Source: an uncultured Acidobacteriota bacterium
GTDB taxonomy: Bacteria > Acidobacteriota > Thermoanaerobaculia > Multivoradales > UBA5704
Reading direction: 5' to 3'
DNA length: 64,000 bases
Assembly (NCBI GenBank): GCA_963700145.1
Contig: OY969474.1
Coordinates: 3,104,001 to 3,168,000, forward strand
Shown here: piece by piece, positions 28,168 to 31,381 of the stretch
Layout of the letters: each line of letters begins with the position of its first letter
How positions within the stretch are numbered: position 1 is the stretch's first letter
The notes under the pieces: model-generated
Told to the model about the DNA's origin: nothing
Databases searched by the model: none
The model's input: only the letters and a program-made list of their open reading frames with translations
Made by a program: the position numbers and the translations under genes

Positions 28168-29331
28168 CTAATGTAGGAACATCGGCAGCCCCAGCACGCC
28201 GGTGATCTTCGGGCGGTAGGCGTCGCGGTCGTAGAAGAGCTCGACGTCCACCTGCTTGACCCCTTCGCCCACCGTCTCGAGCGGCACCGTGGCGTAGCGC
28301 CCGCCCTCGACGACCGCCATCCGCCCCGCCTCGCCGGCCAGGATCAGGTCGGCGGCGAGGTTGGCGAAGTTGCTGGCCACCAAGCGGTCGAGCGAGTCGG
28401 GAGGGCCGGAGCGCATGAGGTACCCGAGCCGCTGGTAGATCACCCGCTCGCCAGTCCCCTCCTGCAACAGCTCGCGCACGTAACGCCCGACGCCGCCCAG
28501 CTCGCGGTTCCCGACCGCGTCCGCCTGCCCGGTCTCGAACGGCCGCCCGCCGATCGGGTAGGTCCCCTCGGAGACGGCCACGACGGCGTAGTTGCTGGGG
28601 TTCGACCGCTTGTCCTCGGCGAGGAGCTCGACGATCGCCCCGGGCGCGAAGGGCACCTCGGCGATGAGCGCCCGGTCGGTGCCGGCGAGGTAGGAGGCGA
28701 GGAGGCAGGTCTCGCCGGAGTAGCGGCCGAAGAGCTCCACGACGAGGAAGCGCTCGTGCGAGCCGGCCACCGTGCGCAGGTCGTGGATCAGATTGACCGA
28801 CCGGGTCACCGCGGTCGAGAAGCCGATGCAGTAGTCGGTGCCGAAGACGTCGTTGTCCATGGTCTTCGGGATGCCCACGACGCGCGCCCCTTCGCGGTGC
28901 AGGCGGCGGGCGAAGGTCAGCGTGCCGTCGCCGCCGATCGCCACCAGCGCCTCGAGCCCCAGGAACCCGAGCGTCTCGACGGCCGCCGCGGTCAGGTCCA
29001 CCTTGCCGTCGCCGAGCGGCGTGCCGCGCCCGGCCAAGTGCGGCGGCACGGCGTCGGCGCGGACGAGAGCGGGGTTGATGCGCGAGGTGTGCAGGACGGT
29101 GCCGCCGCTGCGGTCGATGGTGCGGGTGTTGGCGCGGGTCAGCGGCAGGAGCCAGGCCGCGTTGTCGGCGTCGCGGGAGGGGACGACGTGGAGGAGCGCC
29201 GCCCAGCCGCGGCGCAGGCCGACCACCTCGTACCCCGCCTCCTCCATCCGCCAGACGAAGGTCTTGATGGCGCTGTTGAGCCCCGGCACGTCGCCGCCGC
29301 CGGTCAGGATCCCGACCCGCTTGGTGCTCAA
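28168..29331 (-). CDS. pfkA: 6-phosphofructokinase (PfkA family)
   Basis: [36 protein letters not shown] start overlapping the gap stop. Confidence 0.9.
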
Positions 29332-30326
29332 GCCGCGGCCAGCCGCTCGATCAGGTCCACCACGCGGTTCGAGTAGCCCCACTCGTTGTCGTACCAGGCG
29401 ACGACGCGCACGTAGCCGTCGCCGGTCGAAGTCGTCGAGAGGGCGTCGAAGACCGAGGAGTGCGGGTTGCCGATGACGTCGGAGGAAACGAGCGGCACCT
29501 CGCTGTACTCGACGATGCCGGCCAGCTCCCCCGCCGCCGCCTTCTGGACCGCCGCGTTGGTCTCGGCGACCGAGGGCTTGGCGCGCAGCTTGACCACCAG
29601 GTCCACGATCGAGCCGTCCGGCACCGGCACCCGCATCGCCAGGCCGTCGAGCTTGCCTTTCAAATGCGGCATCACCTTCCCCACCGCGCGCGCCGCGCCG
29701 GTCGTCGTCGGGATGATGTTCTGCGCCGCCGCGCGGCTGCGGCGGAGGTCCTTGTGCGGCACGTCGGCCAGGCGCTGGTCGTTGGTGTAGGCGTGGACGG
29801 TGGTGATGAAGCCCTCCTCGATGCCGAAGGCCTCGTCGAGGATCTTGGCCAGCGGCGCCAGGCAGTTGGTGGTGCAGGAGGCGTTCGAGACCAGCCGGTG
29901 CTCGGGACGGAGAGTCTGGTCGTTAACGCCGACGACGATCGTGGCGTCGATCTCGTCCTTGGCGGGGACGGTCAAGATGACCTTCTTGGCCCCCCCTTCG
30001 AGGTGCTTGGCGAGGAGGTCGCGCTTGGTGAAGACGCCGGTCGACTCGACGACGATGTCCACCCCGAGCTTCCCCCACGGGATCGCCGCCGGGTCCTTCT
30101 CGGCCGTCATCTCGATGCGCTCGCCGTCGACGTACATGGCCTCGTCGTCGGCCCGCACCTCCTTGGGGAAGACCCGCATCAGCGAGTCGTACTTGAGGAG
30201 GTAGGCGAGCTGCTGGTTCTCGTAGAGGTCGTTGATCGCCACCACCTTGATGTCCTCGCGGTCGGCGAGGATGCGGAAGACGCTGCGGCCGATGCGGCCG
30301 AAGCCGTTGATGCCGACCTTGATCAT
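29328..30326 (-). CDS. gap: glyceraldehyde-3-phosphate dehydrogenase type I (intact active site)
   Basis: [36 protein letters not shown]. Confidence 0.96.
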
Positions 30327-31381
30327 CACGCCACCTCCTTCTTCTCGGCCGCGGCTTTCTTCTCGGCCGCGGCGCTGTCGAGCTCCTCGAAGCGGCGGAT
30401 CAGATCGACGACGCGGTGGGCGTACCCCCAGCCGTTGTCGAACCAGGCAAGGGTCTTCGAGACGCGGCTCCCCAGGGTCATCGTGGCGAGCGAGTCGAAG
30501 GTGCCGGAGAAGCTGCTCATCTGGATGTCGCTCGAGACGATGGGGTCGTCCTCGTAATCGAGGATCCCCCGCCAGCGCTTGGTGCCGCAGGCGGTGCGCA
30601 CGACCTCGTTGATCGCCTCGACGGTGACGTCGGCGCCGTGCCAGCAGACGAGGTCCACGACCGAGCCGTTCGGCACCGGCACGTTCATGGCGATGCCGCT
30701 GACCTTGCCGGCGAGCTCGGGGATCAGCTCCGCCAGCATCTCGTCGGAGTTGGTCTCCTGCGGGATGATGTTCTCGGCCGCCGCCCGGCCGCGCCGCGGA
30801 TCGGCGTCCGGCACATCGGCCAGCCGCTGCTGATTGGTGTAGGCGTGGACGGTGGCGAGGAAGGCGCGCTCGATGCCGAAGGCGTCGTAGAGGATGCGCG
30901 CCAGCGGCGCCGCGGCGTGGGCGGTGTTCGAGGCGTTCGAGACGATGCGGTGCTCGGGGCGGAGCTGGTCGTCGTTGAGCCCCATGACGACGGTCAGGTC
31001 GGGCGGGTCGGCGGGCGGCGCGCAGAGGATGACGCGCTTGGCCCCCTTCTCGAGATGGCGCTCGATCTCGGCCCGCGTGCGGAAGCGGCCGGTCGCCTCG
31101 ACGACCACGTCCACCCCGAGCGCCCCCCAGTCCACGTCCCCCGGCTTCTCCCCCGAGAGCATGCGGATTTGGCGCCCCGCCGCGTAGAGATGGCCGTCCT
31201 TCAGGCTCACCTCGTCGGGGAAGCGGCCGAGGATGCTGTCGAAGCGGAGCAGGTAGGCGAGCCCGGCGTGGTCCGCCGTGTCGCTGATCGCCGCGATCCG
31301 TATGTCGTCCCGTTTGTAGAGGATGCGGAAGATGTTCCGCCCCACCCTCCCCAGCCCCATGAGCCCGATCCGCGTCGCCAT
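30326..31381 (-). CDS. GAPDH paralogue lacking the catalytic Cys
   Basis: Full-length GAPDH fold ([26 protein letters not shown]) but [12 protein letters not shown]. Confidence 0.9.

Follow-up and report, generated by a model that had tools for sequence, protein, structure and literature searches.

A predicted non-catalytic GAPDH paralogue is encoded directly upstream of canonical gap in Acidobacteriota and other bacterial phyla

A 64,000-nucleotide stretch of contig OY969474.1 from an uncultured bacterium of the acidobacterial class Thermoanaerobaculia (hereafter called the window) carries two adjacent minus-strand genes for proteins of the glyceraldehyde-3-phosphate dehydrogenase (GAPDH) family. 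The downstream gene, gap (29328-30326), encodes a canonical type I GAPDH of 332 amino acids with every catalytic residue present. The upstream gene, which we call gapX (30326-31381), runs from an ATG at 31381-31379 to a TGA stop codon at 30328-30326 and encodes a GAPDH-like paralogue (GapX) of 351 amino acids. Comparisons among homologues support the view that GapX is not a GAPDH-type enzyme and is predicted to be non-catalytic, yet that its gene is maintained. GAPDH therefore probably has an undescribed non-catalytic partner in these bacteria, and we favor the interpretation that GapX is the non-catalytic subunit of a hetero-oligomeric GAPDH, a reading that we judge on balance to be probable.

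The two proteins encoded in the window are 50% identical (164/331 positions; E 3e-118), and they differ at catalytic and phosphate-site positions. Residues 32, 149, 176, 231, and 314 follow Bst GAPDH numbering, with homologues aligned to the window's Gap. In GapX, asparagine (Asn152; codon AAC, 30926-30928, minus strand) stands where the catalytic Cys149 would be, Arg231 is replaced by Asn233 (codon AAC, 30683-30685, minus strand; IAMNVPV vs LAMRVPV in Gap), and Glu314 is replaced by Gly317. The phosphate loop reads IIPQETNSD vs IIPTTTGAA in Gap, such that PQETN stands for PTTTG. In GAPDH, Arg231 and the loop containing Thr208-Gly209 form the substrate-phosphate site, and the GxGxxG motif, Asp32, and Asn313-Glu314 form the NAD site. 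The window's GapX retains GLGRVG, TVHAYT (which includes His176), WFDN, and Asn313, and its reading frame, as read from the sequence, is full length without a frameshift. A preliminary description of this DNA had listed the catalytic Cys-to-Asn change, PQETNS in place of PTTTGA, and AMNVP in place of AMRVP, together with the retained GxGxxG, TVHAYT His, and WFDN motifs, the full-length frame, and a TGATG overlap with gap. All of these are present as described.

Both proteins have the two Pfam domains of the family, Gp_dh_N and Gp_dh_C, which in GapX are matched at residues 4-102 (PF00044, E 6.7e-29) and 158-313 (PF02800, E 2.9e-45). Against the profile for type I GAPDH (TIGR01534, EC 1.2.1.12), GapX scores 331.6 bits, which is under the cut-off of 367.2, and Gap scores 438.2, which is above it. 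GapX also falls under every other NCBIfam cut-off for GAPDH, erythrose-4-phosphate dehydrogenase (E4PDH), and ArsJ-associated GAPDH. Most copies of GapX in databases are named plain GAPDH or “NAD-binding domain-containing protein.”

The arrangement of the genes in the window suggests that they are translated together. A Shine-Dalgarno-like GAGGAGG (31387-31393, minus strand), read from the sequence, lies 5 nt ahead of the gapX ATG, and the gapX stop codon and the gap ATG have one base in common within TGATG (30324-30328, minus strand). An in-frame GTG one codon upstream is an alternative start for gap and would produce a 4-base GTGA overlap with gapX. A GGAGG sequence lies inside gapX, 7 nt ahead of its stop codon. 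The host genome consists of one contig of 5.46 Mb, and its only two GAPDH matches are gapX and gap. For this reason, gap must carry the GAPDH flux of the cell.

This gene pair is not peculiar to the window. The pattern returns in every related locus examined, which puts it far outside what chance would produce. A canonical gap gene directly follows gapX in 34/34 loci examined from the window's class. Among 121 sampled genomes of that class, a GAPDH match is found in 119; by our reading of the table, about 50 have two adjacent matches and the remainder have one, with the adjacent pairs occurring in families f1, f3, f4, f5, f6, f10, f16, and part of f13. A scan of contigs from species-representative genomes used an alignment of distant family members, as the wider gapX alignment had no stretch conserved enough, and it yielded 80 loci, with a gapX-type open reading frame (ORF) in 19 and canonical gap alone in 61. 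In 19/19 of the gapX-bearing loci, a canonical gap lies directly downstream on the same strand. These loci are labeled Marinimicrobia/Neomarinimicrobiota, Eisenbacteria, Desulfobacterales or “delta proteobacterium,” Planctomycetota, Thermoanaerobaculia, Holophagales, or unnamed bacteria. In total, gapX is positioned directly upstream of canonical gap, on the same strand, in 53/53 tandem loci from at least five phyla.

Junctions between the two genes were parsed by script for 50 of the 53 tandem loci, with three loci left unparsed. The genes overlap by 4 bases in 35 (ATGA, GTGA, or TTGA) and by 1 base in 5, and they are 0-3 nt apart in 8; the remaining two were mis-parsed, and an overlap was seen by eye. 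In most loci, a purine-rich, GGAGG-like site is located in the last codons of gapX. These features support the conclusion that translational coupling of gapX and gap, as predicted from sequence, is conserved across phyla. Two of the loci (L028 and L029) come from unpublished genomes (G004 and G104). They are counted among the class loci, codons, junctions, and substitution-rate comparisons and in the 141-row tree described below, whereas the 28-sequence alignments and the trees of 126 Gap proteins, 51 GapX proteins, and 60 rows were made without them, and no conclusion rests on them.

The preliminary description had coupled the predicted dead GAPDH to both gap and a downstream phosphofructokinase gene, pfk. 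The coupling to gap extends across phyla as noted above, but pfk is not part of the conserved unit. In the window, gapX, gap, and pfk (28168-29331, minus strand) are arranged head to tail and joined by stop/start codon overlaps, and pfk is the third operon gene in the window's own family. Its likely TTG start codon (29331-29329) overlaps the gap stop codon (29330-29328) within TTGA (29328-29331, minus strand), which would give a divergent phosphofructokinase of 387 amino acids whose alignment with solved phosphofructokinases begins at residue 2; the longest possible ORF starts at a GTG at 29382. A pfk gene also follows gap in a Holophagales-labeled contig, whose GapX likewise has Asn at position 149, and a weaker pfk match (48%) follows gap in one locus of family f3 (L011). 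Other lineages carry other kinase genes (described below) or unrelated genes at this position, and no conserved third gene was found after gapX-gap among the loci examined. Thus, the conserved unit is gapX-gap rather than gapX-gap-pfk, and pfk is linked to the pair in only a few lineages, mainly in the window's own family.

Several other neighbors of the pair were observed. A pyruvate kinase gene follows gapX-gap in a sister family of the class (L032, 1838-3340, minus strand) and in a marine lineage (L041, 5014-6420, plus strand), and a gene for a DUF4147/MOFRL (glycerate-kinase-like) protein follows it in a Desulfobacterales-type contig (L052, 4204-5574, plus strand). The pair tends to adjoin kinases of lower or upper glycolysis. 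The pfk product of the window matches the Pfam PFK family (E 3e-63) but is under the NCBIfam cut-offs (TIGR02483, 249.6 vs 430.55; NF002872, 237.2 vs 253). Its best solved relatives are ATP-dependent phosphofructokinases (E 4e-38); compared with these, the window's protein carries about 60 extra residues inserted after residue 47. Because the protein combines GGDG with PKTMDND, its phosphoryl donor (ATP or pyrophosphate) is unreadable from the sequence.

A protein search for GapX returned 7974 relatives, the best 120 of which are 72-97% identical to the window's protein and, where named, are labeled Thermoanaerobaculia or Acidobacteria. Among these 120 homologues, residue 231 is Asn in 120/120, residue 176 is His in 120/120, residue 32 is Asp in 120/120, and residue 314 is either Gly (116) or Ser (4). 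Residue 149 is far less uniform, with Cys in 62, Asn in 42, Ser in 15, and Val in 1. The homologue that is 97% identical to the window's GapX has the same catalytic 10-residue stretch, including the Asn. In 30 loci of the window's class, position 149 holds Ser (21 loci), Cys (7), Asn (1), or Val (1); residue 231 is Asn, Ala, or Ser and never Arg; His176 is present in 30/30; and the downstream gap is canonical in 30/30. Four further divergent loci of the class add Phe, Gly, and Arg at residue 149. The codons at this position are TGC or TGT in the nearest relatives and TCN, AGC, GTG, TTC, GGT, or CGG in others.

Across 51 GapX proteins from tandem loci, residue 149 takes nine types (Ser 29, Cys 12, Asn 2, Val 2, Phe 2, and Pro, Ala, Gly, and Arg), and at least 10 changes are needed to account for this distribution on the GapX tree. 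Within the 150 best cluster representatives at 50% identity, those with lengths of 300-520 residues include 15 that lack Arg231, and these carry Val, Pro, Cys, Ala, Asn, Ser, or Gly at residue 149. Thus, position 149 behaves as an unconstrained site would, and such variation is typical of a position that has no catalytic role. What is common to the whole GapX family is the loss of Arg231 and Glu314 and an altered loop at residues 206-210. In the class loci, this loop has PQETN or PQESR in place of PTTTG, and Arg195 is kept; among phyla, the loop varies (QETNA, QESRS, NTTGA, NETWA, VKTWT). The GxGxxG motif is kept in all loci, residue 32 is Asp or Glu in more distant class loci, and the position of Asn313 is occupied by Ala or Ser in 14 of the 28 class GapX sequences aligned.

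The variability at residue 149 bears on whether the Asn found in the window merely reflects recent decay. Of the five same-family relatives examined, four (L003, L004, L005, and L058) retain Cys149, which is the outcome that the preliminary description had tied to strain-specific decay, and the loss of the Cys is not common to the nearest orthologues. However, the presence of Cys in the closest relatives does not refute the proposal of a catalytically inactive protein, since the remaining catalytic losses extend through the whole family and position 149 is occupied by so many different residues. A history in which gapX is a functionless, decaying duplicate, or a pseudogene in the making, with Asn149 as a strain-specific lesion, could draw on these Cys-bearing relatives and on a non-synonymous rate in gapX that is about 1.65 times that of gap. 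This history is nevertheless contradicted, and we consider it very improbable, given that the gapX frames are open and full length in all 53 tandem loci from several phyla, that 54 columns are invariant among 28 class sequences, that the 97%-identical homologue shares the Asn-bearing stretch, and that the gene is visibly constrained by selection.

This constraint was assessed from codon alignments of 34 loci, in which a strong bias in G+C content at third codon positions makes the synonymous rate (dS), and hence the ratio of non-synonymous to synonymous rates (omega), rough. For the six closest pairs (Nei-Gojobori method), omega ranges from 0.12 to 0.24 in gapX and from 0.16 to 0.48 in gap. 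The median omega over 487/560 pairs with dS < 1.5 is 0.36 for gapX and 0.24 for gap. The preliminary description had proposed such a comparison as a check, and for gapX the ratio comes out well below 1. Thus, gapX is under purifying selection that is somewhat relaxed. One gap sequence in this set, from locus L010 (2-1510, minus strand; genome G019), has an aberrant 3′ end: it reads WYDNAWGR and extends to 503 amino acids, apparently because of a 3′ frameshift or an assembly error.

Purifying selection would also be expected if GapX were a neofunctionalized enzyme that applies the GAPDH fold and NAD to a reaction independent of the thiol and of both phosphate sites, or that is active only in those members that bear the Cys. 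Such an enzyme could be reconciled with the conserved Rossmann motif and His176, with the Cys149 found in 62 of the best 120 homologues, and with Gln206, Glu207, and His152, which are conserved within the class. In contrast, the presence of nine chemically unrelated residues at position 149 with repeated changes among them, a pocket loop that varies by phylum, scores that fall short of the E4PDH and ArsJ-associated GAPDH families as well as of GAPDH itself, and the lack of a conserved third gene that would point to a pathway all make a new enzymatic activity seem quite unlikely to us.

The phylogenetic data are consistent with a single origin of the pair. A quick tree of 141 rows puts every one of the 30 rows that lack Arg231 on the same side of a branch (SH-aLRT 99). 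A second quick tree covered 126 Gap proteins, which were grouped as partnered or unpartnered by gene neighborhood and not by the treed sequences; in it, the 50 Gaps that are partnered by GapX form one side of a branch (SH-aLRT 100), and opposite them are 76 unpartnered Gaps, a sample from one pattern scan and thus not a random one, that includes 15 from the window's class and 3 from Planctomycetota. The window's Gap belongs to the partnered clade. A careful tree of 60 rows (LG+C20+F+G4) splits GapX plus partnered Gap from 28 unpartnered Gaps at 100/99 and recovers GapX as one group at 100/99, whereas partnered Gap alone is weakly supported (82/26). By these trees, GapX is the sister of the partnered-Gap clade, and we count this relationship among the results in hand.

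The main groupings of the gapX tree match those of the gap tree. In a Desulfobacterales/delta proteobacterium pair of loci (L051 and L052), both gapX and gap nest, in separate trees, within acidobacterial groups beside family f3, and this placement looks like horizontal transfer of the two-gene unit. The simplest history that these sequences suggest would begin with one old tandem duplication, after which catalysis was lost from the upstream copy and the genes descended vertically, with occasional horizontal transfer as a pair.

A Gap-GapX heterodimer was modeled from alignments that held 28 orthologues of each protein. The model predicts a GAPDH-type interface with an ipSAE score of 0.74 (0.74, 0.82, and 0.74 in three runs; best control 0.00), a mark reached by 116/157 solved complexes and 2/215 mismatched pairs, although this pass may reflect likeness only, because GAPDH homotetramers are solved. 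The runs have at least 97% of contacts in common, and the pLDDT of the partner is 93. Invariant positions of GapX are concentrated in the predicted interface (17/39 vs 37/288 elsewhere; Fisher p 1.6e-5), whereas those of Gap are not (15/42 vs 91/285; p 0.6). The consensus sequences of GapX and Gap also agree more often within the interface (28/39) than elsewhere (154/287; p 0.04). Residues that are invariant in the class and peculiar to GapX are His at 152, Trp247, Glu277, Thr310, and Gly at 314; Trp247 lies inside the predicted interface, where Gap has Arg. The S-loop motif RLADVP occurs in GapX and in partnered Gap and is absent from unpartnered Gaps. Its presence in both proteins may be due to shared ancestry, but its invariance in the faster-evolving GapX speaks for constraint.

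The positions at which GapX has lost constraint include residues 149, 151, and 154 of the catalytic stretch, the phosphate loop and following helix (208-216), and residues 6, 33, 76-79, 97, 180, and 313. We take Asn6, Leu33, 76-79, Gly97, Asn180, and Asn313 to be NAD contacts. Judged by the alignments and the model, selection on GapX appears to preserve a fold and a subunit interface and not a pocket.

This pattern is also relevant to the suggestion, made in the preliminary description, of an NAD(H)-sensing regulator. In such a case, GapX would be a free-standing, non-catalytic binder of a nucleotide or metabolite (a homo-oligomeric sensor, regulator, or moonlighting protein) that is co-expressed with gap but forms a separate particle. 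The GxGxxG motif and the acidic residue at position 32 are kept, His176, Ser148, Thr150, and Arg195 are largely kept, and the new His at 152 and the Gln-Glu at 206-207 are conserved within the class; furthermore, a homotetramer would exhibit interface conservation as well. However, the relaxation at the presumed NAD contacts weakens the sensor proposal, and the altered pocket residues vary across the wider clade. In addition, strict adjacency, start/stop overlap, and co-transfer with one Gap lineage across at least five phyla exceed what shared regulation by itself would need. We therefore regard a separate sensor as unlikely.

A non-catalytic subunit of a hetero-oligomeric GAPDH is the best fit to the constraint on interface and fold, to the conserved gapX-gap overlap, and to the inheritance of the two genes as a pair. 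The heterotetramer subunit put forward in the preliminary description agrees with co-inheritance, with conservation focused on the interface, and with the heterodimer model, and the binding itself is a prediction of that model. Under this proposal, GapX would be an ancient paralogue of type I GAPDH that gave up GAPDH catalysis and was retained by selection. GapX and its cognate catalytic Gap would be made from one translationally coupled message and would assemble through the ordinary GAPDH subunit interfaces to form a hetero-oligomer, plausibly a 2:2 tetramer, in which GapX may act as a structural or regulatory subunit. The coupling suggests a stoichiometry of 1:1, and hence perhaps 2:2; physical association of the proteins, and any effect on activity, are what we infer from these patterns. 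The arrangement could be adaptive, for example by hard-wiring half-of-the-sites behavior, or it could be the product of a neutral ratchet after duplication.

A more specific version of the hetero-oligomer proposal can be offered tentatively. Half-of-the-sites behavior has long been described for GAPDH homotetramers. It is possible, although we would not yet bet on it, that glycolytic GAPDH in these bacteria (among them the abundant marine Marinimicrobia, Acidobacteriota, Eisenbacteria, and some Planctomycetota and Desulfobacterales) is an obligate two-protein enzyme in which each tetramer has two catalytic Gap chains and two dead GapX chains, half-of-the-sites behavior is hard-wired, and GapX provides its invariant S-loop and interface to the active chains.

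Several observations weigh against assigning GapX as a GAPDH subunit. Both Cys149 and His176 are still present in about half of the nearest homologues and in most of the same-family relatives examined, and some residual or different thiol chemistry in the Cys-bearing members is conceivable. Full conservation of GxGxxG and Asp32 leaves room for a function in which a nucleotide, and not Gap, is central. A heteromer and two separate homotetramers are indistinguishable by the complex model, and the list of interface positions was derived from the same alignments that were then scored for conservation. Residues specific to partnered Gap are found at 0/42 positions of the predicted interface vs 11/284 elsewhere, and thus Gap shows no sign of having co-adapted at that interface. 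Finally, no genuine gapX-gap fusion was found among seven longer protein hits (E up to 1e-60).

Three of these longer hits (P0339, P0340, and P0341; 673-703 amino acids) had the appearance of gapX-gap fusions. In each, the GapX part stops aligning at about residue 240-285 and is followed by an out-of-frame, Arg/Gly-rich stretch. These proteins are frameshift read-throughs produced by assembly or gene calling, and each is represented by a single member on a single contig. In the remaining four hits, canonical GAPDH is joined to other domains. Long cluster representatives (P0121, P0150, and others) all have canonical Cys motifs; P0121 (2089 amino acids), the best-scoring cluster representative, contains four GAPDH units, all with canonical SxxSCTTN, and is unrelated to GapX.

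Comparison with known proteins helps to define what is unusual about GapX. It resembles type I GAPDH (GapA; Geobacillus stearothermophilus, PDB 1gd1/1nq5) in having both Pfam domains, GxGxxG, Asp32, His176, Arg195, and the S-loop, and its best solved relatives are GAPDHs at E of about 1e-95 and 45-50% identity. It differs from this enzyme in its score under the TIGR01534 cut-off, the Arg231-to-Asn and Glu314-to-Gly changes, the replaced 206-210 loop, and the variable residue at 149. Among the 60 best solved chains listed, no name indicates a natural form without the Cys. The best solved match, 1nq5, has Ser at the 149 position in the alignment and is presumably an engineered Cys149Ser mutant. 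E4PDH (Epd/GapB; TIGR01532) and ArsJ-associated GAPDH (NF033735) are likewise GAPDH paralogues of altered function that adjoin pathway partners. However, GapX scores far under their cut-offs (268.6 vs 530.55 and 271.6 vs 450, respectively), and both of those enzymes need the catalytic Cys.

The chloroplast A2B2 GAPDH of land plants (GapA/GapB), chains of which are among the solved relatives of GapX (e.g., 2pkq and 7q53), offers another parallel in that it comprises two GAPDH paralogues that arose by duplication, one of them with a C-terminal extension. In that heterotetramer, both subunits are active enzymes, a regulatory pair of Cys residues is located in the GapB extension, and the genes do not form an operon. 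In contrast, the window's GapX lacks Cys149 and Arg231, and its 20-residue tail lacks Cys and corresponds to a region of variable length. Dead paralogues that serve as subunits are known from other enzymes, including the alpha subunit of plant pyrophosphate-dependent phosphofructokinase, ClpR of the cyanobacterial and plastid Clp protease, and the trypanosomatid “prozymes” of S-adenosylmethionine decarboxylase (AdoMetDC) and deoxyhypusine synthase. As is proposed for GapX, these are paralogues under selection that lack catalytic residues and work, or are proposed to work, only in a hetero-oligomer with an active sister. Those complexes have been shown experimentally, whereas the binding of GapX to Gap is modeled. 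Full-text literature searches and the portions consulted of a review (PMC12041015) revealed no natural Cys-less GAPDH paralogue or heteromeric bacterial GAPDH.

The remaining features of the window are described here for completeness. The operon is flanked by a divergent TonB_C gene (31478-32233, plus strand) and by a convergent gene for a zf-HC2 anti-sigma factor (27110-28144, plus strand). The start of the latter is overlapped by the stop codon of a gene for an extracytoplasmic function (ECF)-type sigma factor (26508-27113, plus strand), which in turn adjoins a gene for a TPR and CHAT-domain protein of 1126 amino acids (23128-26508, minus strand). On the other side, a 318-amino-acid ORF (32292-33248, plus strand) has predicted membrane-like N-terminal stretches, matches no Pfam family, and has a G+C content of 0.62 vs about 0.71 around it. 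A gene for a PIN-domain protein (33658-34095, minus strand) lies directly after an ORF of 88 amino acids without a Pfam match (34097-34363), in a layout of the VapBC toxin-antitoxin type. Within 27900-31800, no sigma-70-like promoter (by consensus scan), intrinsic terminator, or Rfam family at E up to 0.1 was found. A search of sequencing runs matched three, of which one is an RNA run that contains a fraction of 0.05 of the words.

Few enzymes have been studied as thoroughly as GAPDH, which in bacteria is assumed to be a homotetramer. If our interpretation is correct, GapX would be the first natural non-catalytic GAPDH subunit, and its assembly with Gap would bring a new quaternary form, and perhaps a new level of control, to central carbon metabolism. 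The misnaming of gapX products would amount to a widespread annotation error, one that inflates the apparent copy number of gap in metabolic reconstructions. The gapX-gap pair would also be a clean case of a duplicated homomer that has become a heteromer with one silent partner, and it would provide a natural system in which to address the old question of GAPDH subunit cooperativity.

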